A stretch of DNA of 42,630 nucleotides, from positions 1 through 42,630 of the forward strand of contig JAICHZ010000001.1 in NCBI GenBank assembly GCA_025924655.1, written 5' to 3'. Within the stretch, counting starts at the first letter, position 1. The number at the start of each line of letters is the position of its first letter. The notes beneath the pieces were generated by a model. It had not been told where the DNA came from and did no database searches. It saw nothing but the letters and a program-made list of their open reading frames with translations. Source of the DNA: Pseudonocardiaceae bacterium. Its GTDB lineage: Bacteria; Actinomycetota; Actinomycetes; Mycobacteriales; Pseudonocardiaceae. Positions 17,880 through 41,094 of this stretch are shown here, in pieces. Position numbers and translations under genes: made by a program.

Positions 17880-18230
17880 ATGACTGTTACCTGGTCCGGT
17901 ACCGGCGAGCGGGTCGCGGCACTGTCGTGCTGTGCCGGCTGCCGGGTGGATCCGGCGCTGCGCCGCCACCACGACCGGCTGCTGACCGTCGAGTCCGACG
18001 TCGACGAGCTGCTCGAGCTCATCGAGCTGGCAGTGACCTGGGGTGAGTTGAACTACTGCGGCGTCAGTGTCGTGCCGCCCGGGCAGTGGCTCGAGTTCGC
18101 CGCCTGCCACAAGTGGCGAGACCCGGACCGGGCGGCGCGAATCTTCAGTGTGGCCACCGACATCGCGCTGCGGACCGGCCGGCGCGAGACGGCCTACTCG
18201 CTGCCTGGTGAGGTCGCAACTGCCAGCTGA
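17880..18230 (+). CDS. hypothetical protein
   Basis: An internal ATG of ORF 17736..18230 is preceded by AAGGAGG about 8 nt upstream. The 116-aa product (MTVTWSGTGERVAALSCCAGCRVDP...) has no motif I recognise. Confidence 0.5.
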   Translation: MTVTWSGTGERVAALSCCAGCRVDPALRRHHDRLLTVESDVDELLELIELAVTWGELNYCGVSVVPPGQWLEFAACHKWRDPDRAARIFSVATDIALRTGRRETAYSLPGEVATAS

Positions 18231-18243
18231 GGGGGACAGCACG

Positions 18244-19233
18244 TCAGGAGCGCCCGAGTCGGGTGACGTCGTCGACGGCCAAGTCGAGGACGGTGGCGGA
18301 GGCACTCCCGACCCGCAGCGCAAGCTTCCCCGAGTCATCGATTCGACCCACTACGGCCGCGGACAACCCTCGGTCCAGGAACGGTTGCGCGCAGTCTGCC
18401 TCCCGACCGGCCGGGGCGCAGAGCAGGAACCCGAAGCTGGGGAAGCAAGTCAGCCAGGCCGCCAACCTGACCCCTGAGGGCACTGGCACGGCATCCACGT
18501 CGAGTACGACGCCGTGGCGACCCCACTCCAGCAGCATCGCCAGCGACCCGACCAACCCGGCCATGCTGATGTCCTTAGCCGCCACGCACGCGCCGGACTC
18601 GGCGAGCCTGGCGAAGAGCCGCACGTCCCCGGCGCACTGCGACCCACGCTTTTCGAAGGCACCGAAGAACGGGAAGTCCGGGCGCATCCGGCCATCCAGC
18701 GCGGCGGCCACAAGCAGGCTCTGCCCGGCCCGCACCCGAGTCACCGACAGTGCCTGCCCGCTCGTCGTGCCGACGCCGAACGCCGAGACCGCGGGTTGCC
18801 CGTGGTGCAGCGTGAGGTGCCCGCCGAGGATCGGCACGTCGTAGAGCTCGCCCGCCCGCCGCATTCCGAGCAGCACCGAGCGAGCCACCTGCTCGGAACT
18901 GACGATCGTGTCTACGATGCCCAGCGGCAGTGCGCCCATCGCGGCCAGATCGTTGACGTTGGTGAGCACCGCGGCGAAGCCGGCGCCGTACGGGTCCGCG
19001 GCCACGAACGGCGGCCACAGCGCCTCACCGCAGGCCACCACCTGGCCGCCCAGCGCGGCCACCGCTGCGCCGTCGTCACCCGGGCCGGAGATCCAGTCAC
19101 CCGGTCCCAGTACCTCGCTGACCAACCCAATCGCCGCCTTGCCACGCAGCCCGGGATGGGCCCGCAGGGTCTGCACCAGCTCGGCCAGCGCGGCCGGTGC
19201 ATCGGCCCGTACCGCCGCCGTCGTGTCGGCCAT
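18244..19233 (-). CDS. AIR-synthase-related (PurM/ThiL/HypE superfamily) protein, probably sll0787 family
   Basis: GPGDDGAAV and AVLTNVNDLAAMGALP are the PurM-superfamily N-domain motifs, and DISMAGLVGSLAMLLE lies in the C-domain. The protein has 329 aa. Confidence 0.85.
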   Translation of the reverse strand: MADTTAAVRADAPAALAELVQTLRAHPGLRGKAAIGLVSEVLGPGDWISGPGDDGAAVAALGGQVVACGEALWPPFVAADPYGAGFAAVLTNVNDLAAMGALPLGIVDTIVSSEQVARSVLLGMRRAGELYDVPILGGHLTLHHGQPAVSAFGVGTTSGQALSVTRVRAGQSLLVAAALDGRMRPDFPFFGAFEKRGSQCAGDVRLFARLAESGACVAAKDISMAGLVGSLAMLLEWGRHGVVLDVDAVPVPSGVRLAAWLTCFPSFGFLLCAPAGREADCAQPFLDRGLSAAVVGRIDDSGKLALRVGSASATVLDLAVDDVTRLGRS

Positions 19234-19259
19234 CGCCGCCTCCGTCCGTCGTCGTTTCC

Positions 19260-19301: not shown

Positions 19302-20084
19302 GTGCGACCGCCGAGGTTCCTCGAGCTGCCCGCCCGCAGCGGCAAGCCCCGCGCCACCGGGCTGACGCACGTGCTGGACACCGGGGTGCCGCCTACCACC
19401 GCGGCCGCCGTGTTGGCCACCGGCGCTGGGTACGTCGACGTGTGGAAGACCGGGTGGGGGACCGCATACATCGACCCTGGCCTACCGGAGAAGGTGCGAT
19501 TGCTGGCCGAGACCGACGTCGCGGCGTGCCTCGGCGGCACCCTGCTCGAGATCGCCTGGGCGCAGGGGCGGGCCGAGGAGTGCCTGGCCTGGGCGGACGA
19601 GGTCGGCTTCCGCTACGTCGAGGTCTCCCGCGGGACCGTGCCGATGAGCCTGGCCGACAAGCACCACCTCGTCGGGCTGGCCGCCGGCCGGTTCGTCGTG
19701 CTCGCCGAGGTCGGGTCCAAGGACCCGGGCGAGCAGCCGACGCCGGCGCAGTGGCGGGCCGAAGCGCAGGCTGACCTCGCCGCCGGCGCGCACCTGGTGG
19801 TCACCGAGGGGCGGGCGAGCGGCACCGTCGGCACCTTCGATGCCACCGGGCGAGTCCGCGAGGATGTAGTGGCCGCGGTGGTGGACGGCGTCGGGTTGGA
19901 GCACGTGATCTTCGAGGCTCCCCGGCTGGAGCAGCAGGCCTGGTTTATCCGCCGGTTCGGACCCGAAGTCAACCTCGGCAACGTAGGGCTGGAGCAGCTG
20001 ATGACGGTGGAGACGCTGCGGCTGGGGCTGCGCTCTGACACTTTCCGCTGGGACAGCGCTGTGGTCGGGACGCTGGTGCCGTGA
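19302..20084 (+). CDS. comA: (2R)-phospho-3-sulfolactate synthase (ComA family)
   Basis: The match to ComA extends end to end: KPRATGLTHVLDTG, YVDVWKTGWGTAY, GGTLLEIAW, YVEVSRG, VLAEVGSKD, VVTEGRASG, VIFEAP, VNLGNV, VETLRLGLRSDTF. Confidence 0.9.
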   Translation: MRPPRFLELPARSGKPRATGLTHVLDTGVPPTTAAAVLATGAGYVDVWKTGWGTAYIDPGLPEKVRLLAETDVAACLGGTLLEIAWAQGRAEECLAWADEVGFRYVEVSRGTVPMSLADKHHLVGLAAGRFVVLAEVGSKDPGEQPTPAQWRAEAQADLAAGAHLVVTEGRASGTVGTFDATGRVREDVVAAVVDGVGLEHVIFEAPRLEQQAWFIRRFGPEVNLGNVGLEQLMTVETLRLGLRSDTFRWDSAVVGTLVP

Positions 20085-20959
20085 TGGCGGTGAACCTCGT
20101 ACCCGGTCGCTACCGGGGCGTCGCGGTGGCCACTGTGTCTGGGCCACTGGACGAGGGGGCGCTGCGCGCACATTTTCTCGGCCGGGAGGCCTACCGCCGC
20201 ACCCGGTTCGTCGTCGTGTGCGCCGGCGAGCGCACTGCGGTGCTGCGGGTCGCCAAGGCTTCACAGACCGAGCTGTTCAGCCCCATCGTCGAGCTGGAGG
20301 TGCTGGCCGGACCGAAGGAGTGCGTATTCCTGCACCGGCCCGACGTGGATACCGCGATCCCCTCCGCGCTGGCCGCGACCGCGGTCGCTGACGCACCCGG
20401 TGCCCGGGCCGTGGTCGTGCGCGGTCGGTACGAACACGTCAACTTCATCCTCAACCCGCGCCCACGCCGGGTGGTCGTGCGCGAGGTGGTCCCACCGGAG
20501 CCGGCCAAGCTGTTCGACCAAGCCAAGCGGGTGCTCGCGGTCACTGAGGATCTGCCCCCGCTGGAGCTGGTGCCTGAGGTGGTGGACCTCACGGAGGTGG
20601 CCAGCGCGCACCCCGCCGCGCACTACCTGCTGCCCTGCCGGGGTTCCGGCGTCACCGTCGCCGGGGCCAAGGTGTCCTATCTGGACGAACGTCCGCCGCT
20701 GGCGGGCTGGACGCTGCTCGGCTGCGAGCGATCCCGCCAGATCCACCGCTGGTGCTACGGCTGCGAGCCATCCACCGTGGACTTCTGCCCGAAGCGGGAT
20801 CCGGCGCCCGGCACGTTGACCAAATGCTGCCTGCAGGAGGAGCACGTCGAGGCCGGCGATGGCTGGGTGTCGGTGCCGTGGGGATCGTCGCTCGAGCAGG
20901 TCCGCGAGGCGCTGACCGGGCTCGCCCGCGCGCTGGAGCCGGCGTGGGCACCCGGCTGA
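20081..20959 (+). CDS. hypothetical protein with a Cys-rich C-terminal region
   Basis: This 292-aa ORF has a GTGA overlap with the comA stop and a 16-nt overlap with the next gene. The C-terminus reads LLGCERSRQIHRWCYGCEPSTVDFCPKRDPAPGTLTKCCLQEEH. I recognise no family. Confidence 0.7.
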   Translation: MMAVNLVPGRYRGVAVATVSGPLDEGALRAHFLGREAYRRTRFVVVCAGERTAVLRVAKASQTELFSPIVELEVLAGPKECVFLHRPDVDTAIPSALAATAVADAPGARAVVVRGRYEHVNFILNPRPRRVVVREVVPPEPAKLFDQAKRVLAVTEDLPPLELVPEVVDLTEVASAHPAAHYLLPCRGSGVTVAGAKVSYLDERPPLAGWTLLGCERSRQIHRWCYGCEPSTVDFCPKRDPAPGTLTKCCLQEEHVEAGDGWVSVPWGSSLEQVREALTGLARALEPAWAPG

Positions 20960-22299
20960 CCGACTCGGCCAGCTACGCCCACCTGTGGGGCACCGACGAG
21001 CTGGCCCGGGTGTTCGACGAGCCAGCGCGCCTGCAGTGCTGGCTGGACATTCTCGTCGGGCTAGCCAGGGTGCAGGCCCGCCTCGGGATCGTGCCGGCGG
21101 ACGCCGCCGAGGCGATCGCCACCGGCGCCCAGGTGGCGTCGCTCGATCTGGACTACGTCGCCGAGCAGACCCGGCTCACGTCGCACTCCACGCTGGGCCT
21201 GATCCGTGCCCTGCAGCGGGTGCTGCCGGAGCACGCTCGGGAGTACGTCTACCTCGGAGCCACCGTGCAGGATCTCACCGACACCTGGTTCGGGGTGGTG
21301 CTACGCGAGGTCGGCAGCCTGGTCTGGCGCGAGCTGCGCGCCCTGGAGGCCGACCTGCTTGACCTGGCCCGGACTCATCGGGAGACCGTTCAGGTAGGAC
21401 GGACTCATGGCCAGCCTGGCGCGCCGGTCACCTTCGGGTTCAAGGCGGCGTCCTGGGCCGACGAGGTGCGGCGGCACCTGCAGCGGCTGCGCGAGGGGCG
21501 CTCCAGGTGGTTGGTCGGGCAGCTGGGTGGCGCGGTGGGGGTGCTGGGGTTCTTCGAGGCGGACGCAACGGCGCTGCGGCGGCAGTTCTGCGCCGAGGTC
21601 GGGCTCGCTGATCCCGTCATCTCGTGGCTCACCTCGCGCGACCGGCTTGCCGAGTTCGGGCACCTGCTGGCCATGGTGTGCGGCACCCTGGCCCGGATCG
21701 GCGGCGAGGTCTACGAGCTGCAGCGCCCGGAGATCGGAGAGCTGGCAGAGCCCACCACGGCCACCGCGGTCGGCAGCATCACCATGCCGCACAAGCGGAA
21801 TCCGGAGAGCAGTGAGCACCTGGACACCCTGGCCCGGCTGGCCCGGTCCTCGGCCGCAGTGCTGACCGAGGGTATGACCCAGCTGCATGAGCGCGATGGT
21901 CGCGGATGGAAGGCCGAGTGGGTGGCGCTGCCCGAGGTATGCCTGCTGACCGGCGCCGCACTGCGGACCGCACGCACGATCGTCAGCGGCCTGGAGGTAC
22001 ATGCTGGCGTGATGGCGGCGAACCTGGTCCGGCACGGGGACACGCTGGCTTCCGAGCGCGTGCTGGCCGGGCTTTCGACGCGGCTGGGCAAGCACCAGGC
22101 GCAGGCGGCGCTGCAGGAGGTACTGGCCGGAAGGCCGGCGGACCTCGCGGCAGCGCTGGCGCAGCGCGGGCTGGCCTCGGTCGAGGACGTCCGCGGCTGG
22201 ATCAGCCGGTCGCCGGTGGCCACGGCGGGAGAGATGGTCGACGCGGTACTGGCTCGCGCCGCCGCGGCCCGGGCCGGCGAGCCGGAGACCTGGCCATGA
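20944..22299 (+). CDS. fumarate-lyase-superfamily enzyme, adenylosuccinate-lyase / CMLE-like
   Basis: The start is taken at GTG 20944 within ORF 20752..22299. The signature loop is GSITMPHKRNPESSE. TVQVGRTHGQPGAPVTFG and YLGATVQDLTD are typical of the ASL/PcaB branch. Confidence 0.85.
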   Translation: MGTRLTDSASYAHLWGTDELARVFDEPARLQCWLDILVGLARVQARLGIVPADAAEAIATGAQVASLDLDYVAEQTRLTSHSTLGLIRALQRVLPEHAREYVYLGATVQDLTDTWFGVVLREVGSLVWRELRALEADLLDLARTHRETVQVGRTHGQPGAPVTFGFKAASWADEVRRHLQRLREGRSRWLVGQLGGAVGVLGFFEADATALRRQFCAEVGLADPVISWLTSRDRLAEFGHLLAMVCGTLARIGGEVYELQRPEIGELAEPTTATAVGSITMPHKRNPESSEHLDTLARLARSSAAVLTEGMTQLHERDGRGWKAEWVALPEVCLLTGAALRTARTIVSGLEVHAGVMAANLVRHGDTLASERVLAGLSTRLGKHQAQAALQEVLAGRPADLAAALAQRGLASVEDVRGWISRSPVATAGEMVDAVLARAAAARAGEPETWP

Positions 22300-23279
22300 T
22301 CCCACCGCGGTTCCCACTCGCGGTGCTGCCTACGCCGCTGGTGCGGGCACACCGGCTGGAGGCGGTGCTGGGACGGGGCCGGGTGCAGCTCAAGCGCGAC
22401 GACCTGGCCGGGTTCGCAGTCGGCGGCAATAAGACCCGGCCGCTGGAGTACCTGCTGGGACAGGCCCTGGCCGACCGGTGCGACGTGCTGGTCACCGGCG
22501 GCGGCCCCGGCTCGAACTTCTGCCCGGCCGCCGCCGTGGCCGCCCGTGCCGCAGGCTTGGACTGCGAGCTGATCATCTGTGGCGACAACGACCGGGGCGA
22601 CGGGTACGGCTCAGCCAACCTGGCCATCGCGGCGGCTGCCGGCGCCTGCATCCGGCCAACCGGTGACCAGGCGCGCGAGGCCTTGGACGCCGCGATCGCC
22701 GAGCGCGCCGCCGACCTGACCGCGGCCGGCCGGCGGCCGTTCCCGGTGCCGCGCGGGGGGTCCACCCTGCTGGGCGCGGTGGGGTTCGCGGTCGCGGCGG
22801 CCGAGTTGGCGGGTCAGCTCGACCAGTCTGAGCTAGCGGGCGGCGCCGAACCCGCGCTGGTGGTACTGCCCGTCGGCTCCGGTAGCAGCTGCGCCGGGCT
22901 GCTGGCCGCCGGGCCGCCGTGGCCGGTGCTGGGGGTATCGGTCAGCCGGCCACTGCAGGAGATCACCAGCAAGGTGCACGCGCTGGCGCAGGCGTGCGCC
23001 CGGCTGCTGGGCTATCCGCCACCCCGCCCGAGGGGGCTGGAGATCGTTGACGCCCGCGGGCCCGGCTTCGGTATCGCGTCTCAGGCCGACCGGGCCGCCG
23101 CGTGCCTGGCGCTGCACACCGAAGGCCTACTGCTCGACGACACCTACGGCGCCAAGGCGTTCGCGGTGCTGACTCAGCGGGCCGGCGACGTCCGGGGACC
23201 CGTGGTGTTCTGGCACACCGGCGGTGTGGTGCCGGCCGTGGCCGCGCTGCGCCAGCGGATATCGGGAGGACGGATGTGA
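22296..23279 (+). CDS. PLP-dependent enzyme of the D-cysteine desulfhydrase / ACC deaminase family
   Basis: An ATGA overlap links it to the upstream stop. LPTPLVRAH, KRDDLAGFAVGGNKTRPLEYL (PLP lysine), PRGGSTLLGAVGF, LPVGSGSS, LLLDDTYGAKAF and FWHTGG align along E. coli DcyD as I remember it. Confidence 0.85.
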   Translation: MIPPRFPLAVLPTPLVRAHRLEAVLGRGRVQLKRDDLAGFAVGGNKTRPLEYLLGQALADRCDVLVTGGGPGSNFCPAAAVAARAAGLDCELIICGDNDRGDGYGSANLAIAAAAGACIRPTGDQAREALDAAIAERAADLTAAGRRPFPVPRGGSTLLGAVGFAVAAAELAGQLDQSELAGGAEPALVVLPVGSGSSCAGLLAAGPPWPVLGVSVSRPLQEITSKVHALAQACARLLGYPPPRPRGLEIVDARGPGFGIASQADRAAACLALHTEGLLLDDTYGAKAFAVLTQRAGDVRGPVVFWHTGGVVPAVAALRQRISGGRM

Positions 23280-24793
23280 CGCCAAGACGCGAGGAGGGGC
23301 CGCCGCAGACCGGGGCGGCGCGTGAGCTGGTGGAGTCCGGCTTCACACTGGAAAACGCGGACGCCTCATTCCTGCACCGCGGCCTGAACCTGGCCGACCT
23401 GGCGCACGTGTTGGACCTGGCCCGGCGCGGCATCGTGCCGGTGCCGGCTCAGCGCGAGCTGCTGGCGTTGCTGCTCGAGGTGTACGAGGTCCCCGCTGAC
23501 GAGTTCCCCTACGACCCCTCCTACGGCGAGCCGTACAACTCCCGCGAGCACTACTTCGTTTCCCGGATCGGCGACGTCGCAGGGTGGTTGCATGCCGGGC
23601 GGCCGCGGCGGGAGGCGGCTCGGATCGCGCTGCGGCTGCACCTGCGCCGCCAGCTCGTCGAGCTGGTCGCCGAGGCTGCCGCCTTCGCCCGGGTGGCCGT
23701 CGACCGGGCTGACGAGCACATCGAAACCGTGATGCCCGACCAGACTTACCTGCAGCAGGCCCAACCCTCGACGTTCGGGCACTACCTGCTGTCCTTTGTG
23801 TACTCGACGCTGCGGGATGCCCGCCGACTACTCGAGGAGCTCGACTGGGTGGACTGCAGCCCGGGCGGCGCTGGCTGCGTCAACGGCACCCGGCTGCTCT
23901 CTGACCGCAGCTTCATCGCCGACGCGCTGGGGTTCCGTGGAGTGATCGAGCACACCCGCGACGCGATGTGGCAGATCGACGGCCTGATCCACGTACTGGC
24001 CACCGCGGCCAGCCTGCTGTCCGGGTTCAGCAAATTGGCTGAAGACCTGGAGATCTGGTCGAGCAGCGAGTTCGACTTCGTTGATCTGGCAGACGCCTAC
24101 ACTCGGGCCAGCGTGCTCATGCCGCAGAAACGCAACCCGTACTCGCTGGCCATCGTCCGCGGTGCCTCCGGGATCGTCATCGGGCGGCTGGCCGGGTTCC
24201 TCGCGGTGGCCAAGAGCCCATCTGCTCGCAGCGACAACCTGATTTTCGCCTACGGTGAGGTGCCGCGGGCGCTCGACTTGTGCCTGCGGATCACCCGGTT
24301 GATCACTGGGGTGGTGCGCACGATGCGGGTCAACGCCGAGCGGATGGCCGAGCAGCTGCGCGCCGGCTACACCCAGTCCACCGACCTCGCCGAGCACCTG
24401 GTGCAGGTCTGCGCAGTGGACTACCGCACCGCTTACGTCGTCGTCGGACGCACTGTGCGGGCGGCCAGCCGGGCCGGGATCCCCGGCATGAAGATCACCG
24501 GCGAGATGCTCGACGACGCCGCCCGCGAGCACACCGGACGATCCTGGGGACTGGCCGGGATGGACCTGTCCGAGGTGCTCGACCCCTGGCAGATAGTGCT
24601 TTCCCGGCATGCCCAGGGCGGTGCCGCGCCAACGGCAGTGCACCGCATGACAGGGAACTTACGAAGGTCGCTGGACGAACTGGACGCCACGGTCAGCGAG
24701 CGGGCCGCGGCCCACGACCGCGCCGAGAGTTCGCTGCTGGCGGCGGCCAAGGCAGTGGTTGAGCAGGACGGTCAGCAGGAGGGTGCACCGTGA
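23276..24793 (+). CDS. fumarate-lyase-superfamily enzyme, argininosuccinate-lyase-like
   Basis: A GTGA overlap links it to the upstream stop. The signature loop is SVLMPQKRNPYSLA, and MPDQTYLQQAQPSTFGHYL is ArgH-like. Confidence 0.85.
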   Translation: MTPRREEGPPQTGAARELVESGFTLENADASFLHRGLNLADLAHVLDLARRGIVPVPAQRELLALLLEVYEVPADEFPYDPSYGEPYNSREHYFVSRIGDVAGWLHAGRPRREAARIALRLHLRRQLVELVAEAAAFARVAVDRADEHIETVMPDQTYLQQAQPSTFGHYLLSFVYSTLRDARRLLEELDWVDCSPGGAGCVNGTRLLSDRSFIADALGFRGVIEHTRDAMWQIDGLIHVLATAASLLSGFSKLAEDLEIWSSSEFDFVDLADAYTRASVLMPQKRNPYSLAIVRGASGIVIGRLAGFLAVAKSPSARSDNLIFAYGEVPRALDLCLRITRLITGVVRTMRVNAERMAEQLRAGYTQSTDLAEHLVQVCAVDYRTAYVVVGRTVRAASRAGIPGMKITGEMLDDAAREHTGRSWGLAGMDLSEVLDPWQIVLSRHAQGGAAPTAVHRMTGNLRRSLDELDATVSERAAAHDRAESSLLAAAKAVVEQDGQQEGAP

Positions 24794-26193
24794 GCGTGTT
24801 GCCGGAGCAGATCAGGGCGGTCAACATCGGGTTGCCGATGTTCGCCGATGCCCTTCGGGCGCAGGGCGTGGCGGTGGAGCATGTCGACTGGCGGATCCCT
24901 GCCGGTGGCGACCTGGCCGCGGTGGCCACGCTGAGCCGGCTCTACGGGGATCATGGGAGCGCTATCGACGGAGCCAACGCCGAGGTGGTGCGGCGGCTGG
25001 ACTCCGGCGTGCCGCAGCTTGTCGAGGTGTCCACGGTGGCGCAGGCCGTGCCCGCAATGGTGGGTCGCACCCTGCTGCACTGCGGCCCGGCGATCGACTT
25101 CGGGCAGGTGTGCGACCCGCTGCGCCGCTCGATGCGGGCCGCCGTGGTCGCCGAGGGCTGGGCGGCTGACGTCGAGGAGGCGCAGCGGTTGCTGGCCAGC
25201 GGCGATGTGGCGCTGGAGCCGGCCAACCACCACCAGGCGGTGGTACCGATGGCCAGCGCGATCGGCCCGACTGCACCGGTCTTCGTGGTGGCTGACCGCG
25301 AGGGCGGCACCCGGTCCTACGCGCCGGTCAACCAGGGCCCCGGCGAGGTGGCCTGGTTCGGCCGGGACACTGACGCGGCGGTCGAAAGGTTGAGGTTCCT
25401 GCGCGATGTCGCCGGTCCGGCGCTGACCCGGGTCCTGAGCTCGGCCGGCCCACTAGACATCCTCAGCTTGGCCGCACAGGGCGTCGCGATGGGCGACGAC
25501 CTGCACATGCGCACCCAAGCGGCGACCAACCTGCTTGTCCGAACGTGGCTGCCCCAACTCGCTGAGCTGCCGGACCAGCAGCGCGGCGGGATGGCCCGCT
25601 TCCTGTCCGGCAACCACCTCTTCTTCCTCACGCTGGCGATGGCCGCAGCCAAGGCGCTCACTCTCTGGGCCGAGGAGGTGAGCGGGTCAAGCGTCATCAC
25701 GACCATGTCCCGCAACGGGACCACGTTCGGGATCAAGCTTGCGGGCTCGCCGGAGTGGCACATCACCGCTGCCCCGCCCATCACTGACGCGTTGTACTAC
25801 TCCGGCTACGGGCCCGAGGACGCCGCCCCGGATATCGGCGACTCCGCCGTGCTGGAGCTGGTAGGACTGGGTGGACCGGCGGCCGCCGGCTCGCCAGCCG
25901 TGGCGGCGTTCCTCGGTGGCTCGATGGCCGACGGCAAGCGGGCCACCGAGGCGTTCCGGCAGATATGCGTCGGCACCAGCAGCCGCTTCACGTTGCCTCC
26001 GTTGGACTTCAGCGGCACGCCGGTCGGCGTGGACGTGCGGCGGGTGGTGGAGCTGGGGATCACCCCGCAGATCACCACCGGTATCCTGCACTGCTCCTTG
26101 GGCGTCGGACAGATTGGCGCCGGGGTGGCCACCGCGCCGCTGGAGTGTTTCACCGAGGCGCTGGCCGCCCTGGACGCTCGCCTGGTGCGGTGA
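24790..26193 (+). CDS. DUF1116 protein (YlbE/AllG-like, oxamate carbamoyltransferase subunit family)
   Basis: A GTGA overlap links it to the upstream stop. LLHCGPAIDF, LEPANHHQAVVPMASAIGPTAPVFVV and NQGPGEVAWFG resemble the YlbE/DUF1116 family. Confidence 0.8.
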   Translation: MSVLPEQIRAVNIGLPMFADALRAQGVAVEHVDWRIPAGGDLAAVATLSRLYGDHGSAIDGANAEVVRRLDSGVPQLVEVSTVAQAVPAMVGRTLLHCGPAIDFGQVCDPLRRSMRAAVVAEGWAADVEEAQRLLASGDVALEPANHHQAVVPMASAIGPTAPVFVVADREGGTRSYAPVNQGPGEVAWFGRDTDAAVERLRFLRDVAGPALTRVLSSAGPLDILSLAAQGVAMGDDLHMRTQAATNLLVRTWLPQLAELPDQQRGGMARFLSGNHLFFLTLAMAAAKALTLWAEEVSGSSVITTMSRNGTTFGIKLAGSPEWHITAAPPITDALYYSGYGPEDAAPDIGDSAVLELVGLGGPAAAGSPAVAAFLGGSMADGKRATEAFRQICVGTSSRFTLPPLDFSGTPVGVDVRRVVELGITPQITTGILHCSLGVGQIGAGVATAPLECFTEALAALDARLVR

Positions 26194-27574: not shown

Positions 27575-27649
27575 AAACGCACATCACTTATGGTGTATAC
27601 GTGGCTGCGTGGACGAGCCCCATCGTAAACGCCGGAAGAAGGGTTATCC

Positions 27650-34645: not shown

Positions 34646-35616
34646 GACACGGCTCCAAGCGAAGTGGAGGCGGCGACGATGCGGGTGCCCACCGCGGCAC
34701 CGCCGGGGGCCGGGTCGAGCGAGCGGGCGGCACGTTCGGAGTTGGTGATCACAGCGGTGCGACCGCCCGCCCGGACGAACTCGATCGCGGCTCGAACCTT
34801 GGGTCCCATGCTGCCGTCCGGGAACTGGTCGTCCTCAAGGTGGAGCTGTGCCTCGTCGGCGGTCATGGCGGTAATCGGGCGGGCGTCCGGGGTGCCGTAG
34901 TCAAGCATCACCTGCTCCACGTCCGTGACCATGACCAGCGCGTCGACGCCCAGCGCAGTGGCCAGCCGCTGGGCGGCAAGATCTTTGTCCACGACGGCGT
35001 CCACGCCGCGGTAGGCGTGCCCGTCTTCGACCACCGGCACCCCTCCGCCACCAGCCGCCACTACCAGCGCACCACGCTCGACCAGTGCGGTGATCACCTC
35101 GAGCTCGAGGAATCGCAGCGGGCGCGGCGAGGCGACCATCCGGCGGTAGCCCCGTTCGGCGTCCGGGGCCACTGTCCAGTTCCGCTCAGCGGCCAGCCGC
35201 CGCGCCTCCTCCTCACCAAAAAACGGCCCGATCGGTTTCGTGGGGTGAACGAAGGCCGGGTCGTCGGCCGCAACCACGACATGGGTCACCACGCTCACCA
35301 CGGCGGGCAGCCGTCCGCCGCAGGCGTCGTGCAGCGCCAGGGTGAGCAGGCTGCCCAGTTGGCCCTCAGTCATCGCGCCCAGGCAGAACAGTGGTTGCAC
35401 CGGCACGGTCTCGCGTGCCGCGTCCTGCTGGATGGACAGGCAGCCGACCTGCGGCCCGTTGCCGTGCACCACGATGACCCTCCACCCGGCGTCACGCAGC
35501 GCGCATACGGTGTGCGCCATCGCTCGGGCATTGGCCGCCTGCTCGGCGTGCGTGCCGGCTTGGTCGACCCGGGTGATCGCGTTACCGCCCAGGGCGACGA
35601 CGGCGGTTCGGGGCAT
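34642..35616 (-). CDS. arcC: carbamate kinase
   Basis: VVALGGNAI, VVHGNGPQVG, VVAAGGGGVPV and a VVDKDLAAQ-type motif are present. The start is taken at Met10 (35616), with GGGAG 10 nt upstream. An alternative start is 35643. Confidence 0.9.
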   Translation of the reverse strand: MPRTAVVALGGNAITRVDQAGTHAEQAANARAMAHTVCALRDAGWRVIVVHGNGPQVGCLSIQQDAARETVPVQPLFCLGAMTEGQLGSLLTLALHDACGGRLPAVVSVVTHVVVAADDPAFVHPTKPIGPFFGEEEARRLAAERNWTVAPDAERGYRRMVASPRPLRFLELEVITALVERGALVVAAGGGGVPVVEDGHAYRGVDAVVDKDLAAQRLATALGVDALVMVTDVEQVMLDYGTPDARPITAMTADEAQLHLEDDQFPDGSMGPKVRAAIEFVRAGGRTAVITNSERAARSLDPAPGGAAVGTRIVAASTSLGAVS

Positions 35617-35710: not shown

Positions 35711-36340
35711 TTGACCGGACTGGACGCGGAGCGGGACGACGCCCTGCGCCGGGCACGGGCCCGGTGGCGGGCCGCCGAGGACCGACTGTTCCCGGTGGTG
35801 CTCGTCGACCCGGACACCTACCGGCGGGCGTTGTATGTCGTGGGCCTGCTTCTCGAGCAGCTGCGGGCGAATACCACTTCTCTCGACCAGCTGCTCGGCT
35901 TGGACGTCGACCCTGCGCCGTTGCTCTCGACACTGCCGGCCGGCTCCGTGTGTGACGACGGGGACCGGCTGACGCTGGAGGCGGCGTTTGCGGTACGGGA
36001 CAGGGAGCTCGCAGCGGCCGCTAAGCGCGGCCAACGAGCTGCGGCCATCGCGTTGGCGCACGCCGCCGGCGCGACCTGGGTGGACCTCGAGGGATCTTGG
36101 GAAGCTGTCCTGAGCACCGGGGGGCGGCACACCGAGATGCATTTGCCCACCGCCCGGGCGTTGGTCGCCACGATCGATCCCTACTCCGGAGATGGCCCGC
36201 ACCGGCTGGAGCTGGTCGTGCTGGACGGCGACACCGGCACACCAGTCGAGACGACCGACCGCGACCGGGCCTTTGCTGACCGGGCGGAGTGGCTGGCGCA
36301 GCGGCAGCGGTGGCGCGCGGATATCGAGGAAGGTAGGTAG
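35711..36340 (+). CDS. hypothetical protein leading the radical SAM / GNAT operon
   Basis: This 209-aa ORF has a TTG start and ends 2 nt before the radical SAM ATG. I recognise no motif. Confidence 0.6.
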   Translation: MTGLDAERDDALRRARARWRAAEDRLFPVVLVDPDTYRRALYVVGLLLEQLRANTTSLDQLLGLDVDPAPLLSTLPAGSVCDDGDRLTLEAAFAVRDRELAAAAKRGQRAAAIALAHAAGATWVDLEGSWEAVLSTGGRHTEMHLPTARALVATIDPYSGDGPHRLELVVLDGDTGTPVETTDRDRAFADRAEWLAQRQRWRADIEEGR

Positions 36341-36342: not shown

Positions 36343-37446
36343 ATGACCGGTCCAGCCGCGGTCGCTTCGTTAATCATGGATTTGCAGAGCCTCGGGCTGC
36401 GGGTGGAGGCGCCCATCGAGATTCGCCGCGGCGGAGCGGGTCCCACGGACTCTGGAATGCTGTGGATCGAGGGCGTGCCGGTCACCGTCCCCAGCCAGCC
36501 CGAGTCCCCCTACGTGCTCAAGGCTGAGGACGACGGACACGGCATCTACCGTGATGGGCGCAAGATGGCTTCGGCCGCCGCCAGCCGCCGGCCCCGGTTC
36601 TACGACCTGACCACAGCCGATGGCATTCCCTACTGGAAGATCGCGCTGCTGCACCTGGACTCGCTGGCCAGCACTGTTGTGCAGACGTGCAACTACTGGG
36701 GTAACTCCGACCAGTGCGGGTTCTGCGGTATCGGGCTGTCGCTGGGCGCTGGGCGCACGATTGTGAAGAAAACCCCGGCCCAGCTCGCCGAGGTGGCAGT
36801 CGCCGCTCGGAACCTCGATGGGGCGGTGGACGTCACCCTGACCACCGGCAGCTCAGCCGCCCCGGACCGTGGTGCGCGCTACGTCGCGCAGTGCGGGCAC
36901 GCGGTCAAGCAGGCCTCTGGGCTGCCCGTCCAGGTGCAGTTCGAGCCGCCACGCGACCTTGCGGTGCTTCAGGAAGTCGCCGACCTGGGCATCGACGCGG
37001 TGGGCATCCACGTCGAGTCCTTCGATCCCGAAGTGCTGGCCACGGTGGCACCAGGCAAGGCGCGCACCGGCATCGAGACCTACTTCCGCACCTGGGAGCG
37101 GGCGGTGGCACTGTTCGGTGCGGGCCGGGTGTCCACCTACGTCATCCTCGGCATGGGCGAGGATCCCGAGGTCACCGTCGAGGGGTGCCGGCGCGCCATC
37201 GACATCGGCGTTTACCCGTTCGTTGTCCCACTGCGGCCGGTGGCGGGCAGTCTGATGGCCGACGTGCCAGCGCCGGTCCGCACCTACACCGAGCCGATCT
37301 ACCGCAAGGTCGCCGCACACCTGGCGCTGCGTGGGATGAGCGCCGACGACGCCGGCGCCGGTTGTGCCCGCTGCCAGGCCTGCTCGGCGATGAACACCGT
37401 GCAGCCGCTGCTGCAGATCGGCCGCCGGCCAGAGGAGACCGCATGA
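36343..37446 (+). CDS. radical SAM protein, plausibly MSMEG_0568 family
   Basis: The Cys triad CNYWGNSDQCGFCG (36688-36726) is followed by a TIM-barrel-like pattern (VDVTLTTG, IDAVGIHVESFD, YVILGMGE). It is translationally coupled to the downstream GNAT, as in Nit1C-type clusters. Confidence 0.8.
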   Translation: MTGPAAVASLIMDLQSLGLRVEAPIEIRRGGAGPTDSGMLWIEGVPVTVPSQPESPYVLKAEDDGHGIYRDGRKMASAAASRRPRFYDLTTADGIPYWKIALLHLDSLASTVVQTCNYWGNSDQCGFCGIGLSLGAGRTIVKKTPAQLAEVAVAARNLDGAVDVTLTTGSSAAPDRGARYVAQCGHAVKQASGLPVQVQFEPPRDLAVLQEVADLGIDAVGIHVESFDPEVLATVAPGKARTGIETYFRTWERAVALFGAGRVSTYVILGMGEDPEVTVEGCRRAIDIGVYPFVVPLRPVAGSLMADVPAPVRTYTEPIYRKVAAHLALRGMSADDAGAGCARCQACSAMNTVQPLLQIGRRPEETA

Positions 37447-37916
37447 CCCCACTGCGGCCGTCGGCCGACCTGCTGTCCTGCCGGCTGGTTGCCGGGCCGG
37501 ACGAGCTGGCGCGCCACCACTGGATCCGGCACGAGACATTCGTCCGCGAGCAGCAGGTGTTCGCCGGGTCCGATGTGGACGCCCACGATGCTCGCGAGGA
37601 CGTGATGCATGTGGTCGGCTACTGCGGGGGGGTGCCGGCTGGCACCGTACGGCTCTACCCGCTCGACGAATCCGGGCGCACCTGGCAGGGTGACCGGCTC
37701 GCCGTGCTGCCGGAGTTCCGGCACGTCGGGCTGGGCGCGCCGCTGGTGCGCTTCGCGGTGGCCACCGCCGGCCGGCTGGGCGGGGTCTCGATGCACGCGC
37801 ACGTGCAAGTCGCCAATGAGCGGTTCTTCACCCGGCTCGGCTGGATCCGGCAAGGCGACGTCGAACTCTACGTCGGTCGGCCGCACCTACTCATGACCAT
37901 CGCCCTGGCCTCTTGA
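37443..37916 (+). CDS. GNAT N-acetyltransferase, plausibly MSMEG_0567/Sll0786 family
   Basis: An ATGA overlap links it to the radical SAM stop. The GNAT core is GDRLAVLPEFRHVGLGAPLVRFAV...ANERFFTRLGW. Confidence 0.85.
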   Translation: MTPLRPSADLLSCRLVAGPDELARHHWIRHETFVREQQVFAGSDVDAHDAREDVMHVVGYCGGVPAGTVRLYPLDESGRTWQGDRLAVLPEFRHVGLGAPLVRFAVATAGRLGGVSMHAHVQVANERFFTRLGWIRQGDVELYVGRPHLLMTIALAS

Positions 37917-40900
37917 CGCGACCGTTCGCTTTATCGCGGCAGAGCCGGCCGCTGGCCAGGAACCTCGCGCGGACCTCGGGTGCCAGTGAGGTGGTGATCC
38001 GATCCAGCGCCGCCTTGCTGGCATCCGGGTGTCCGACCTGGGCGAGCAGCAGATCCGAGCCGGTCTGCGCCGCGATGGTCGCCGCCTCCGGGTAGCGGCC
38101 CAGATGCCATAGCGCCAACGACTCGTACTTCGTCGACGAGTAGCGCCGGGCGTGCGCCAGCAGCGCCTCGGCTTGGGCTGGCTCGAAGCGGGCCCGCATC
38201 TCCAGCAGCCGCATCGCCGCCCGCGGCCGGAACGGCAGCGACTGGTCGAGCATCGGGGCGGCCGCCTCCACCCGCGCCCCGGCGTCGTCGACGCGGCCGT
38301 CGAGCAGATCGCAGTCGGCCAGCGCGAGCAGCGCGTGTAGCTCCTGCTCCAGCTCCAGCGCGCCGCCGCCGCTGTGCGCCAGTTCCACCGCGCGCTGGGC
38401 GTGCTCACGCGCTTGCCCGACGTCGCCCAGCTCGAGCAACAGCCACGCCGTGGTCGTGTCGATCCCGGCCCGGTAGAAGCTCACCCCGTACTCGTCGATC
38501 ATGCGCCGGGCCCGGCCCAGCGAGCGCAGTGCGCCCTCGAAGTCGCCGACGTCGCCCCGGGCCAGTCCGATGAAAAACAGCGTCTGCAGCAGCGGGCGGA
38601 ACTGTCCGGTCGTCCGGCACAGCACCGCTGCGCGCTCCAGTACAGCGCGGGCCTCGGCGAAGCGGTCCATGTGCTGCAACAGCGCGCCGCGGTAGGCCAG
38701 GGCCACCGCTGCTGTGGTGTCGCCGGCGTCGGCGACCACCTGCGCGTAGGCCGACGCAGCGCCGGAGTAGTCGCCGTCCCAATGCCGCACCCGACCGACG
38801 AGTAACAGCGAGCTAGGCAGTGCGCCGGGCGCGGCGGCAGCCGACTCGGCGAGCGCCCTGGCCCTGGAGGCGAGGTCGACCGCGCCCAACGCGTCGCGGG
38901 CATACAGCGCGGTCCAGCCGAGCTGCTCCAGCACACGAGCCTCGAGCAGCTCGTCGCCGACGTCGCGCGCGATGCCCAGCGCCACCTCTAGGTCGTCGCG
39001 AGCATCGCCGTGCCGGCCAAGGTCGGTGCGGATCTCACCACGACGCATGAGCACCGTGGCCACCAGTATTCGCTCGCTGGAGCGCTGCGCGACGCTCAGC
39101 GCCTCGTCGAGCAGCCGTTCGGCCTCCAGGTTGGCGAAGACCAGGTGCGCGGCGTGCGCCGCGAGCAGCCAGGCTCTCGCCGCCGCGGCGTAGTCCTGCG
39201 CGGCGGCGAGCTGGCGGGCGGCCGCCTCCGGGCGGCCCTCGAACAGCCTGGCGGCCCGGCGATGCCGGCTGACCCGCACCGGCAGCGGCGTGGAGTTGTA
39301 GGCAACCTGCCGCACCACGTCGTTGGCGAAGCGAAAGGTATCCCCGCGCACCACGAGCAACCCGGCGCGTAGTGCCCGTCCGGCGCGGCGGGCGCACTCC
39401 TCGACGTTGATCCCGGACAGCGCGGCAACCTCATCCAGCAGGAACGCCGACCCGAGCACCGAGCCCTGTTGCAGCAGCACCTCAACGTCGTCACCAGCCC
39501 GAACAAACCGCTCGGTGACCGCCTCGTGCAGCGAGCCGGGAATTCCCAGCCCCATCGTCCCGCCGGGCCGGTGGCGCAGCAGCTCGGTGACGAACAGCGG
39601 TGAGCCACCGGTCCACTCATGCAGCTGCGACAGGTCGTAGGGCAGCCCGGAGCGTTCCAGCAGGATGCCGACGGCCTGCTCGGACAGCGGACCGAGCTCG
39701 ATGCAATCGGCCAGGTCGCGCAGCGAGGCGAGCGCGTCGTCGTGCTCGGAGGTGCGCTCGAGGACGAGCGTTAGCACTCGGCTGGTGGCCAGCCGGGCAG
39801 CCAGCACATGCAGTGCCTCCACTGTGGACTGTCCGGCATGCTGGCCATCCTCGATTACCAGGAGCAGAGGCCGACGCTCGGCGAGCCGGTCGAGGAATGC
39901 AGCCAGGGCCTCCAGGCTGCGGAGATGCTCCAGCTCCGGCGCGGCGCGCTGGTAGTGCACGCCGCCGGTGGACTGCGCCATCTCCGGAACCAGCTCGAGC
40001 AGGGTGCCCAGCCAGTCGCCGGCCAGCTCGCGCAGCACGGCGGGCCGGTGCAGTGCGACGACCGCCCGCACCGCGGCCACCAGGGGCTGTAGGTAGAGCG
40101 AGCGCTCGGCCTCGAAGCAGCCGCTGGTAAGCACCAGCCCGCCGGTCTGGCGCACCCGAGCGGCGAGCGCTGCGGCTAGGCTGCTCTTGCCGATGCCGGC
40201 TTCGCCGAGCACCAGCGCGGTGGCGCCCCCACCTCCGGCCGCCCGGGACCACAGCGCTAGCAGCTGCTCCAGCTCGGCGTCGCGCCCGACCAGGTCGGAG
40301 TGCGATGCAGGCGCCTCCGCGGCTAGCAGACTGGCGCCGTAGCCAGGCGGGTCGGCGCGCAGCACGGAGAGGAACACCGCGCGGGTCGCCTCAGATGGGT
40401 CGGCGCCAAGCGCCTCGGCCAGCGCGGATCGAAGGGCGTGGTAGGCGGCCAGCGCCGCCCCGGGCGCCCCAGCGCGTTGGTGCCCGACCATCACCGCGCG
40501 GCAAGCCTCCTCATCGAGCGGGTCTGCGGCCAATGCGGTGCCGGCGACCTCGACGGCAGTGCGGTACTCGCCCAGCTCCAGGGCTGCCCGCCAACGGCAG
40601 CCCCGGGCCCGGCGCAGCTGGGCGACTGCGAGCCGGCGCAGATCCCCGGCCCACGGCAAGTCGACCTCGTCGACCAGCGGTGGCGCCGCAGCGAGCAGCT
40701 TTTCGGCCTGCTCGGCCCCGACCGCGGCCAGCGCATATTGCGCGTGTGCCAGCTCGCGCTCAGCGTTGGCCACAAGCTCCTCGGCCTCGAACAAGTCGAC
40801 AACCGTGCTGCCGTCGAGCACCAGCCGGTAGGCGAATGGACCGCCCTCGATCCTGGCTCGGCCCAGTGACCGGCGTAGCCGGCTGACCAGCACCGCGACG

Positions 40901-41094
40901 TTGCGGTCGGCCCGGTCCGGCGGGTGATCGTGCCACAGCGCGTCTACCAGGGCCTGCACCGGGACCGGCTGGCCGTGCTTGGCGGCGAGCACCTTGAGCA
41001 CCTGCTCGGCCTTGCCAGTCGGCGCGGGGCCGTCGAGATCGCCCTCAACACCGAAGCGTCCCAGCAGCCTCAGCCGTACCCGGCCCGGTTCCAC
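37891..41094 (-). CDS. SARP/AfsR-like regulator: winged-helix plus BTAD, AAA/NB-ARC-like ATPase, TPR
   Basis: It has a GTG start. RLRLLGRFGVE...VLVSRLRRSLG is the OmpR-type DNA-binding domain. The BTAD is EEACRAVMVGHQRAGAPGAALAAYHALRSALAEALGADPS. The Walker A motif is GEAGIGKSSL, and a long Ala/Leu-rich TPR-like C-terminus follows. No LuxR HTH is present. Confidence 0.85.
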   Translation of the reverse strand: MEPGRVRLRLLGRFGVEGDLDGPAPTGKAEQVLKVLAAKHGQPVPVQALVDALWHDHPPDRADRNVAVLVSRLRRSLGRARIEGGPFAYRLVLDGSTVVDLFEAEELVANAERELAHAQYALAAVGAEQAEKLLAAAPPLVDEVDLPWAGDLRRLAVAQLRRARGCRWRAALELGEYRTAVEVAGTALAADPLDEEACRAVMVGHQRAGAPGAALAAYHALRSALAEALGADPSEATRAVFLSVLRADPPGYGASLLAAEAPASHSDLVGRDAELEQLLALWSRAAGGGGATALVLGEAGIGKSSLAAALAARVRQTGGLVLTSGCFEAERSLYLQPLVAAVRAVVALHRPAVLRELAGDWLGTLLELVPEMAQSTGGVHYQRAAPELEHLRSLEALAAFLDRLAERRPLLLVIEDGQHAGQSTVEALHVLAARLATSRVLTLVLERTSEHDDALASLRDLADCIELGPLSEQAVGILLERSGLPYDLSQLHEWTGGSPLFVTELLRHRPGGTMGLGIPGSLHEAVTERFVRAGDDVEVLLQQGSVLGSAFLLDEVAALSGINVEECARRAGRALRAGLLVVRGDTFRFANDVVRQVAYNSTPLPVRVSRHRRAARLFEGRPEAAARQLAAAQDYAAAARAWLLAAHAAHLVFANLEAERLLDEALSVAQRSSERILVATVLMRRGEIRTDLGRHGDARDDLEVALGIARDVGDELLEARVLEQLGWTALYARDALGAVDLASRARALAESAAAAPGALPSSLLLVGRVRHWDGDYSGAASAYAQVVADAGDTTAAVALAYRGALLQHMDRFAEARAVLERAAVLCRTTGQFRPLLQTLFFIGLARGDVGDFEGALRSLGRARRMIDEYGVSFYRAGIDTTTAWLLLELGDVGQAREHAQRAVELAHSGGGALELEQELHALLALADCDLLDGRVDDAGARVEAAAPMLDQSLPFRPRAAMRLLEMRARFEPAQAEALLAHARRYSSTKYESLALWHLGRYPEAATIAAQTGSDLLLAQVGHPDASKAALDRITTSLAPEVRARFLASGRLCRDKANGRVKRPGRWS

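Follow-up and report, generated by a model that had tools for sequence, protein, structure and literature searches.

A putative coenzyme M-dependent variant of the Nit1C gene cluster in Actinomycetota and on a methanotroph plasmid

Introduction

Nit1C gene clusters (nitB-nitH; sll0783-0787; MSMEG_0565-0572) are induced by nitrogen starvation and are needed for growth on cyanide and for resistance to peroxide (PMC6039565; PMC7815647). The MSMEG_0565-0572 cluster makes cells resistant to peroxide in a GlnR-dependent manner and increases the NADPH/NADP ratio (PMC6039565). The function of Nit1C, a question open since 2005, was still called obscure in 2021 (PMC7815647). Here we describe a composite cluster of about 24 genes, located at approximately 17.4 to 41.1 kb of a 42,630-nt stretch of DNA from a Pseudonocardiaceae bacterium (assembly GCA_025924655.1, contig JAICHZ010000001.1, positions 1 to 42,630; hereafter the window), in which genes of the Nit1C type stand together with an operon for the synthesis of coenzyme M (CoM) and with a carbamoyl-phosphate module. 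That these genes, including those for CoM synthesis, form one co-functioning unit is very probable, judging from their conserved neighbourhood. We further propose, as a reading that is possible but falls somewhat short of probable, that the unit is a CoM-dependent variant of the Nit1C ("gpr") cluster through which nitrogen would be regained, by way of carbamoyl phosphate, from a compound of the cyano or carbamoyl type.

Both added modules have described counterparts. In the bacterial Xcb pathway of CoM synthesis, published in 2022, XcbB forms phosphosulfolactate, XcbC eliminates phosphate to give sulfoacrylate, XcbD adds cysteine, XcbE generates a thioaldehyde, and XcbA, the last enzyme, reduces the thioaldehyde to CoM (PMC9457059). 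CoM biosynthesis genes were stated in 2024 to be known only from methanogens and alkene-utilising bacteria (PMC11507031). Since 2024, AllF, AllG and AllH have been known as the subunits of oxamate carbamoyltransferase, which in Escherichia coli are encoded in one operon with a catabolic carbamate kinase (PMC11326118); there, AllFGH and the kinase AllK act catabolically and yield carbamoyl phosphate and ATP, and the carbamoyltransferase reaction, which is readily reversible, was assayed in the direction of synthesis (PMC11326118). Each module is thus known, and their conserved combination is new to the literature that we found: full-text literature searches returned no paper describing the composite cluster, in agreement with an earlier reading of the window from its sequence (the first-pass annotation), whose author knew of no description of the combined architecture.

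Materials and Methods

Gene families were assigned by hidden Markov model (HMM) scans with NCBIfam/TIGRFAM, PRK and Pfam models; scores are given in bits and, where stated, against the curated cut-off. Relatives of the cluster were collected by a single genome scan with the protein of the MSMEG_0572 family encoded in the window (the 0572 protein), which returned 143 relatives. The best 80 of the 143 loci were analysed; they were ranked by similarity of the 0572 protein and taken with 10 kb on each side, so that the sample is biased and absences from it are uncertain. Loci of at least 19 kb (n = 42) are referred to as full-length, and the presence of genes was scored in a tblastn matrix. Many of the compared loci come from metagenome-assembled genomes. 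Structures were modelled with AlphaFold2 (AF2), and folds were compared with the PDB using Foldseek.

Results

Composition of the cluster

The first-pass annotation had described four gene sets in the window, namely Nit1C-type genes, a CoM-type cassette, a carbamoyl-phosphate module and a nitrile hydratase, and had taken their interleaving as a sign of one pathway. The HMM scans found every gene that it named in the place and in the family given there. The overlaps between start and stop codons on which it relied are real, and they cross the borders between modules at xcbC/allG and at fdrA/GT4. Six further genes were found to belong to the cluster or to sit with it. As detailed below, the linkage of the three main modules was borne out; the nitrile hydratase is not part of the core, and membership in canonical Nit1C is only partial.

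A complete set of genes for coenzyme M synthesis

Five consecutive genes on the + strand correspond to the Xcb enzymes. They encode the phosphosulfolactate synthase XcbB/ComA (19302-20084; PF02679, 258 bits; TIGR03849, 220 bits, below the cut-off of 280), XcbA (DUF7714; 20081-20959; NF052538, 339 bits against 150; PF24830, 318 bits), an XcbD-like protein of the adenylosuccinate lyase family (20944-22299; NF052536, 576 bits, just below 600), an XcbE-like pyridoxal phosphate enzyme (22296-23279; NF052537, 222 bits, below 450; CuyA, 178 bits; Pfam PALP) and an XcbC-like protein of the argininosuccinate lyase family (23276-24793; NF052535, 418 bits, below 575; argH, 285 bits). Neighbouring genes overlap by 4 nt at xcbB/A, D/E and E/C and by 16 nt at xcbA/D. 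All five enzyme families of CoM synthesis are therefore encoded together, and the XcbC, XcbD and XcbE models are the best matches of their respective open reading frames (ORFs). The first-pass annotation had rightly called this a CoM-type cassette, but had counted one of the five genes as an orphan; that gene encodes XcbA, a protein with nine Cys residues, which makes the set a complete five-enzyme bacterial CoM pathway.

The closest described arrangement is that of Nocardioides JS614, a CoM-using strain, on its ethene/vinyl-chloride plasmid pNOCA01, where the order B-A-D-E-C is identical. Identities to the JS614 proteins are 51% for XcbB (ComA), 51% for XcbA, 54% for XcbD, 45% for XcbE and 44% for XcbC (44-54% overall); those to the characterised enzymes of Xanthobacter autotrophicus Py2 are 38%, 43%, 45%, 38% and 37%, respectively (37-45% overall). 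In JS614 a gene for a flavoprotein of the CoA-disulfide reductase (CoADR) type adjoins comA, and a gene whose product is 32% identical to it also lies nearby in the window. Unlike the JS614 and Py2 loci, the cluster is without epoxyalkane:CoM transferase (EaCoMT), alkene monooxygenase and hydroxyalkyl-CoM dehydrogenases, and its xcb operon runs without a gap into allG-allH. No homologue of EaCoMT (EtnE/XecA) was detected in the window or in any of the 80 actinobacterial loci, and a supply of CoM for this transferase was accordingly rejected as an explanation of the xcb genes.

It is well supported by these gene assignments that the cluster would provide for the synthesis of CoM, or of a very close analogue, from phosphoenolpyruvate, sulfite and cysteine through XcbB, XcbC, XcbD, XcbE and XcbA. 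Judged by their scores, XcbB, XcbC, XcbD and XcbE are divergent orthologues or paralogues of the known enzymes, and because they fall below the curated cut-offs the product may be an analogue of CoM.

The carbamoyl-phosphate module

The xcb operon continues, on the same strand, with genes for AllG (DUF1116; 24790-26193; PF06545, 233 bits against 27) and AllH (DUF2877; 26190-26927; PF11392, 74 bits against 25). On the - strand are the genes for FdrA/AllF, a SucD-like subunit (33077-34645; NF004760, 407 bits, below 433; Pfam Ligase_CoA and CoA_binding), and for an ArcC/AllK-like carbamate kinase (34642-35616; PRK12352, 275.5 bits against 266; TIGR00746, 344 bits, below 358), the latter preceded by a promoter-like site at 35688-35661. 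Overlaps of 4 nt, by which xcbC-allG-allH and arcC-fdrA-GT4 are coupled in translation, were found at xcbC/allG, allG/allH, arcC/fdrA and fdrA/GT4, and allG directly follows xcbC in every gene order seen. The carbamoyl module that the first-pass annotation had assembled from DUF1116, DUF2877 and FdrA proteins is confirmed, and these proteins can now be named as the oxamate carbamoyltransferase subunits AllG, AllH and AllF.

Homologues of all four proteins of the E. coli allFGHK operon are thus present, but the single operon of E. coli is split here, allG-allH following xcbC and arcC-fdrA preceding the GT4 gene. Unlike the setting of allFGHK in E. coli, the window contains no allantoin or ureidoglycolate genes detectable in the HMM scans. 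The physiological substrate of FdrA/AllG/AllH in this cluster is probably not oxalurate.

Nit1C core genes

Five proteins can be related to canonical Nit1C families. The MSMEG_0572/Sll0783/NitB protein (29287-29790, + strand, with a probable start at 29305; TIGR04044, 227 bits against 110), the MSMEG_0565-family GT4 glycosyltransferase (31857-33080, - strand; TIGR04047, 355 bits against 260), the MSMEG_0568-family radical SAM protein (36343-37446, + strand; TIGR04043, 389 bits against 304) and the MSMEG_0567/Sll0786-type GNAT (37443-37916, + strand; TIGR04045, 92 bits against 68) all exceed the cut-offs of their families; the adjacent radical SAM and GNAT genes overlap by 4 nt. The assignment to Nit1C made in the first-pass annotation stands for these four and is less certain for the fifth, a PurM-superfamily AIR-synthase-like protein that resembles Sll0787/NitF (18244-19233, - strand; Pfam AIRS and AIRS_C), the best match of which, TIGR04049, reached 252 bits and thus remained below 321. 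This protein also scored 170 bits with the methanogenesis marker 2 model, is about equally distant from PurL, PurM, HypE and ThiL of the PDB, and shares 36% identity with a Methylocystis protein named Sll0787 family by RefSeq.

The 0572 protein, which is 56-65% identical to the copies encoded by canonical Nit1C plasmids, contains a single invariant Cys, located in a 12-residue stretch. Its AF2 model (predicted local distance difference test score, pLDDT, 75.8) gave DsrE/DsrF/TusD proteins as its top seven Foldseek matches (TM about 0.55); the model matched only such proteins, which supports the earlier label "DsrE-like". Among the loci the median identity of the 0572 protein is 90%, compared with 50-78% for neighbouring genes, a difference that is in part an artefact of ranking the loci by this protein. 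In the radical SAM protein, the cysteines are arranged as CX8CX2C (C116, C125 and C128) rather than CX3CX2C, and a CxxCxxC motif (C341, C344 and C347) is found at the C-terminus.

Immediately upstream of the radical SAM gene is a gene for a conserved 209-aa protein (35711-36340, + strand) without a family match. Its 97 homologues are all named hypothetical, and it is kept in other gene orders. The AF2 model (pLDDT 91.5) had no PDB fold match at E ≤ 0.001 in Foldseek (best E value, 0.2), and a sequence search of solved structures gave no match for the 209-aa protein, the 0572 protein or the radical SAM enzyme. Retention of a Nit1C core consisting of radical SAM, GNAT, PurM-like and GT4 proteins, together with the new 209-aa protein, is well supported by the family assignments.

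Flavoprotein, 85-aa protein and regulator

The 0572 gene is preceded by two genes on the same strand. The first (27650-28993) encodes a single-Cys flavoprotein disulfide reductase of the CoADR/Nox type, which scored 233 and 213 bits, below cut-off, with CoA-disulfide reductase models, carries the motif SPCGIPY, and matched NoxA-3, CoADR and CoA-persulfide reductase in the PDB; it was found in all 42 full-length loci. The second (28995-29252) starts 1 nt past the flavoprotein stop codon and encodes a conserved, arginine-rich 85-aa protein with the motifs WLRxNSEHYL, FWLRxFxPxYRxLPW and MPGSHR. This ORF, unannotated and not noted in the first-pass annotation, gave no family match in the HMM scans, but tblastn located it in the corresponding place in virtually all of the 80 loci (36-95% identity) and in 42 of the 42 full-length ones. 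The gap of about 300 nt between the flavoprotein and 0572 genes was also considered as a riboswitch, an idea that was rejected because the gap holds the conserved 85-aa ORF and has no Rfam match.

HMM scans detected neither MSMEG_0569 nor MSMEG_0570 among the cluster proteins. It is well supported by gene order that the trio of flavoprotein, 85-aa partner and 0572 protein sits where canonical Nit1C has the MSMEG_0570/0569 pair. The possibility that the flavoprotein and the 85-aa protein are divergent forms of MSMEG_0569 and MSMEG_0570 was rejected, as neither has meaningful similarity to the Klebsiella 0569 and 0570 proteins.

Divergent from the flavoprotein operon is a gene for a PuuR-like regulator consisting of an XRE-type helix-turn-helix and a cupin domain (26861-27535, - strand; Pfam HTH_3 and Cupin_2; PuuR, 59 bits), whose start at 27535 was inferred from aligned loci and which occurs in 38 of the 42 full-length loci. 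Between the two genes lies a sigma-70-like promoter, TTGACA-16-TATGAT, that agrees with the consensus in 11 of 12 positions and overlaps a palindrome, TGCGTT-N10-AACGCA (27547-27581, + strand). The promoter is kept at the same position upstream of the flavoprotein gene in 57 loci; the palindrome (27560-27581) occurs once in the window, where 0 are expected by chance, and probably serves the divergently encoded XRE-cupin regulator as its operator. A shared operator through which the XRE protein would co-regulate the cluster was looked for and not found, the palindrome being present at the flavoprotein promoter only. The other divergent intergenic regions contain only -10-like TAGT elements.

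Conservation across loci

The best 80 of the 143 loci all belong to Actinomycetota, and the taxa named among them include Pseudonocardiaceae, Nocardioidaceae, Jiangellaceae, Propionibacteriaceae, Jatrophihabitantaceae, Dermatophilaceae, Streptosporangiaceae and Acidimicrobiales. The nearest relatives were found among metagenome-assembled genomes of Pseudonocardiaceae; the 0572 protein encoded at locus L001 is 100% identical, and the genes around it are 86-98% identical. Cultured carriers of the cluster include Actinomycetospora spp., Pseudonocardia parietis, P. ammonioxydans, P. endophytica, Nocardioides guangzhouensis, a Streptomyces sp. and, outside the Actinomycetota, Methylocystis iwaonis SD4.

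Among the 42 full-length loci, xcb genes, AllF/G/H or carbamate kinase genes, and Nit1C core genes were each found in 40, and all three modules were present within 10 kb of the 0572 gene in 37. The first-pass annotation had named two findings that would speak against its reading, HMM scores outside the Nit1C families and a lack of co-conservation of the modules; its reading withstood both checks. The genes occur in at least four arrangements, one of them being the Streptomyces version, and four sets of adjacencies survive the rearrangements: xcbB-A-D-E-C-allG, flavoprotein-85 aa-0572, arcC-fdrA-GT and radical SAM-GNAT. Because the content is kept despite rearrangement, the linkage is likely to be functional and not a matter of chance. 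Rank correlations of divergence between genes of the modules (for example, rho 0.93 for AllG and XcbC and 0.74 for XcbA and FdrA) fit inheritance as a unit, but we rejected them as evidence because any two genes of the same genomes would correlate. The Streptomyces copies (L083 and L084; 12.5-Mb genomes) adjoin transposase/integrase (IS4, rve) and phage-like HTH genes, which suggests that the Streptomyces copy was recently mobile.

Comparison with canonical Nit1C and with Methylocystis

In canonical Nit1C the genes form one operon, and on Klebsiella and Burkholderia plasmids their order is 0572-nitrilase-rSAM-GNAT-AIRs(-GT)-0570-0569 (rSAM, radical SAM; AIRs, AIR-synthase-like), whereas the cluster described here is divided into several operons on both strands. 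The xcbBADEC genes, the CoADR-type flavoprotein, the 85-aa ORF, FdrA/AllG/AllH, carbamate kinase and the 209-aa protein are absent from canonical Nit1C and are added here. The MSMEG_0565-type GT4, which is found in many but not all canonical clusters, is present. Canonical clusters are regulated by NtcA, GlnR or the sigma-54 regulator NitA, while the local regulators of the present cluster are of the XRE-cupin and SARP types and not NitA/MocR. A Pnap_2097 homologue was looked for among the cluster proteins, and none was found. Canonical Nit1C itself, at the 0572 identities of 56-65% given above, was seen on 516 plasmid records, with Klebsiella accounting for 374; the example inspected is a K. 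pneumoniae IncFIB/IncHI1B plasmid.

Nearly the whole gene set was also found, at 31-65% identity, on a plasmid of the alphaproteobacterial methanotroph Methylocystis iwaonis SD4 (NZ_CP143315.1, approximately 180.6-200.4 kb). Identities are 60% for the flavoprotein, 50% for the 85-aa ORF (annotated there as a 92-aa gene), 65% for the 0572 protein, 55% for AllG and 31% for the 209-aa protein, and the GT4, FdrA, XRE-cupin, PurM-like, GNAT, radical SAM, OsmC and xcbBADEC genes are shared as well. Unlike the window, the plasmid carries a true Nit6803 nitrilase, followed by radical SAM, GNAT and PurM-like genes in the canonical nitC-D-E-F order, as well as a Pnap_2097 protein. The genes have been annotated one by one in RefSeq, and no description of them as a system was found. 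Comparison of the Methylocystis and canonical clusters points to a variant class: 0570/0569 is missing, and CoM synthesis, FdrA/AllG, the 85-aa protein and a flavoprotein of the CoADR type take its place. A short EaCoMT-like (XecA/EtnE) fragment of about 100 aa, which looks like a gene remnant, lies some 5 kb upstream of the Methylocystis cluster (L085:5031-5368).

The nitrile-hydrolysing enzyme

Directly downstream of the 0572 gene, at the position where nitB is followed by the nitrilase gene nitC in canonical Nit1C, the window carries three genes of a nitrile hydratase on the + strand: those for the beta subunit (29858-30523; TIGR03888, 174 bits against 152; PF02211 and PF21006), the alpha subunit (30520-31116; TIGR01323, 303 bits against 250) and an accessory (activator) protein (31113-31457; TIGR03889, 75 bits against 46), with overlaps of 4 nt at both junctions. 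The alpha subunit has a VCTLCSC motif, and among solved structures it is closest to Co-type nitrile hydratases, that of Pseudonocardia thermophila being one of them. With all three products above cut-off and a metal-site motif of the Co type, the earlier designation as a Co-type nitrile hydratase is correct. Its rank as a core module is not: the enzyme is lineage-specific and is replaced by the Nit6803 nitrilase in Methylocystis. It was found in 29 of the 80 loci and an Amidohydro_2 gene (PF04909) in 42, with no locus holding both; in loci lacking nitrile hydratase (L009-L063; e.g. L010:6713-7576, - strand) the Amidohydro_2 gene adjoins the XRE regulator gene. In the window, HMM scans revealed no Nit6803/Sll0784 nitrilase (TIGR04048) among the cluster ORFs and no CN_hydrolase domain among the flanking ORFs. 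The distribution of these genes suggests that the nitrile-hydrolysing enzyme of the variant class can be interchanged, being either a nitrilase or a nitrile hydratase.

Genes at the edges of the cluster

An OsmC-like peroxiredoxin gene (17365-17763, - strand; Pfam OsmC, 72 bits) is loosely associated with the left edge. Homologues adjoin AllG in 20 other loci, are present in 8 of the 42 full-length loci by tblastn, and, with 58% identity, lie just upstream of xcbB in Methylocystis. Between the OsmC and PurM-like genes is a 164-aa ORF of uncertain membership (17736-18230, + strand) that has no Pfam or NCBIfam match. It was found near the cluster by tblastn in L008 (74% identity), L026 and L063 (47-52%) and L080 (41%), and may be another cluster member. 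At the right edge is the gene of a 1067-aa SARP/AfsR-type regulator (37891-41094, - strand; Pfam BTAD, AAA_16 and TPR), which is specific to the gene order of the Pseudonocardiaceae type and present in 14 of the 42 full-length loci.

Discussion

Proposed function

The canonical Nit1C phenotypes fit a role in nitrogen scavenging and redox metabolism, without defining the chemistry. As a CoM-dependent Nit1C variant, the cluster could operate as follows. The Nit1C core would make or capture a C-N triple bond, which the nitrile-hydrolysing enzyme would turn into a carboxamide; FdrA/AllG/AllH would phosphorolyse a carbamoyl compound to carbamoyl phosphate; and carbamate kinase would convert the latter to NH3, CO2 and ATP. 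The flavoprotein, using NAD(P)H, would keep CoM, or a mixed disulfide or persulfide of CoM and the 0572 protein, in the reduced state. In sum, a C1-N compound of the cyano or carbamoyl type would serve as a source of nitrogen and energy, with CoM acting as carrier, a role that would parallel the one CoM plays in alkene metabolism. It is a more doubtful step to name S-carbamoyl-CoM, a thiocarbamate, as the substrate of FdrA/AllG/AllH. This proposal was prompted by the SucD-like thioester/acyl-phosphate fold of FdrA, by the constant adjacency of xcbC and allG, and by the resemblance of S-carbamoyl-CoM to oxalurate in charge and shape. Equally unlikely, in our estimation, is the general form of the idea, in which CoM serves aerobic soil Actinomycetota and some methanotrophs as the thiol carrier of a C1-N group, a second and widespread role outside alkene metabolism. 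S-cyano-CoM or S-carbamoyl-CoM would then arise from cyanide, thiocyanate, cyanate or an endogenous nitrile by way of the Nit1C core and a relay of the DsrE-like/CoADR type, and FdrA/AllG/AllH would act as a thiocarbamate phosphorylase that feeds carbamoyl phosphate into the production of NH3 and ATP.

Several points weigh against nitrogen recovery through CoM. S-carbamoyl-CoM is not a known metabolite, and the scheme gives no role to the radical SAM, GNAT, PurM-like, GT4, 209-aa and 85-aa proteins; glycosyltransferase, GNAT, radical SAM and the SARP regulator look biosynthetic. Most loci lack nitrile hydratase, which alternates with Amidohydro_2, and in the Methylocystis version nitrile hydratase, carbamate kinase and AllH were not detected; since a nitrilase is encoded there, a carbamoyl route is not obviously needed. 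Of the xcb products only XcbA passes its NCBIfam curated cut-off, and the sampling bias noted above bears on the counts of loci. The argument for a single pathway is one of synteny.

A rather unlikely but coherent alternative is that the cluster is biosynthetic and makes a sulfonate-containing specialised metabolite or cofactor from CoM or an intermediate of the Xcb pathway as a building block. Carbamate kinase would then be anabolic, FdrA/AllG/AllH would install a carbamoyl group, the PurM-like protein may dehydrate this group to a cyano group as HypE does, the GT4, GNAT and radical SAM proteins would tailor the product, and nitrile hydratase or nitrilase would recycle it or protect against it. 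Biosynthetic pathways typically employ proteins of the GT4, GNAT, radical SAM and PurM-like kinds, and the Nit1C core bears the NCBI tag "biosynthetic process"; HypE, of the PurM family, is among the solved-structure relatives of the AIR-synthase-like protein, and the reversibility of oxamate carbamoyltransferase and its assay in the synthetic direction (PMC11326118) would suit such a role. A SARP/AfsR-type regulator gene abuts the cluster, but it occurs in only a third of the full-length loci (14/42), and conservation across many families and in an alphaproteobacterium is not what a classical secondary-metabolite cluster usually shows. We found no gene for a transporter, for resistance or for a carrier protein in the cluster, a nitrile made and hydrolysed by the same cluster looks futile, and canonical Nit1C behaves as a nitrogen-starvation and stress operon (PMC6039565; PMC7815647).

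The peroxide phenotype raises another explanation, which we consider improbable: CoM would be a protective thiol of low molecular weight, the flavoprotein its disulfide or persulfide reductase, the 0572 protein a persulfide carrier and OsmC a peroxidase, the whole being an elaborated version of the mycobacterial "gpr" peroxide-resistance system in which the carbamoyl module only supplies ATP and NH3 under nitrogen starvation. The GlnR-dependent peroxide resistance and raised NADPH/NADP ratio brought about by MSMEG_0565-0572 (PMC6039565) agree with this, as do the CoADR-type reductase, the DsrE fold, and OsmC in the window, in the 20 other loci and in Methylocystis; moreover, the GT4 is distantly similar to MshA and BshA, and the GNAT recalls MshD. 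The coupling of xcbC-allG-allH and of arcC-fdrA-GT would nevertheless be left unexplained, as would the nitrile-hydrolysing enzymes, and OsmC is not universal (8 of 42 by tblastn). Mycothiol is expected in these actinomycetes already, which also counts against a further protective thiol. Far less credible than any of these is a chance assembly of independent neighbours, in which, for example, CoM would feed an alkene or epoxide pathway encoded elsewhere, purine/ureide catabolism would use AllFGH and carbamate kinase, and the Nit1C genes would be a degenerate remnant. Each module does have a known stand-alone context, and the EaCoMT-like remnant lies about 5 kb from the cluster on the Methylocystis plasmid. 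The modules, however, co-occur in 37 of 42 loci despite rearrangement, start/stop overlaps span their borders, allG always comes after xcbC, and no EaCoMT, alkene monooxygenase or allantoin gene was found within 10 kb in any actinobacterial locus.

Implications for coenzyme M and Nit1C

More than 100 species-level genomes of common soil Actinomycetota, as well as a plasmid of a methanotroph, carry a complete xcb operon in a different, conserved context with no epoxide enzymes close by; this points to a new function of bacterial CoM outside alkene metabolism. The variant swaps the uninformative 0569/0570 proteins for known chemistry, namely a thiol cofactor, a disulfide/persulfide reductase and carbamoyl-phosphate enzymes. 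Together with the interchange of nitrilase and nitrile hydratase, this suggests Nit1C substrates that can be tested. The same context suggests that enzymes of the AllFGH family have substrates other than oxalurate. If CoM does carry a C1-N group, Nit1C-type clusters would gain a biochemical function and the DUF1116/DUF2877/FdrA enzymes a new class of reaction. The cultured strains that bear the cluster would be tractable hosts.

Flanking regions

The sequences flanking the cluster appear unrelated to it and encode toxin-antitoxin proteins, a permease, a P450, methyltransferases and a PAS-GGDEF-EAL protein. Phd/PIN-type toxin-antitoxin ORFs and, further on, a cytochrome P450 gene followed by two Methyltransf_19 paralogues (13381-14232 and 14311-15138) occupy positions 475-1761 and 11903-15138 of the left flank, and a P450 fragment is located at 8020-8625. 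The G+C content is about 70% in the cluster and 59-68% in the left flank, falling to 59-60% around 9-12 kb. When the entire window was scanned with Rfam, no RNA family was detected within the cluster; the sole match, an F6 small RNA (RF01791; 41329-41385, - strand; 67.9 bits; gathering score, 46), lies in intergenic sequence just beyond the SARP gene.

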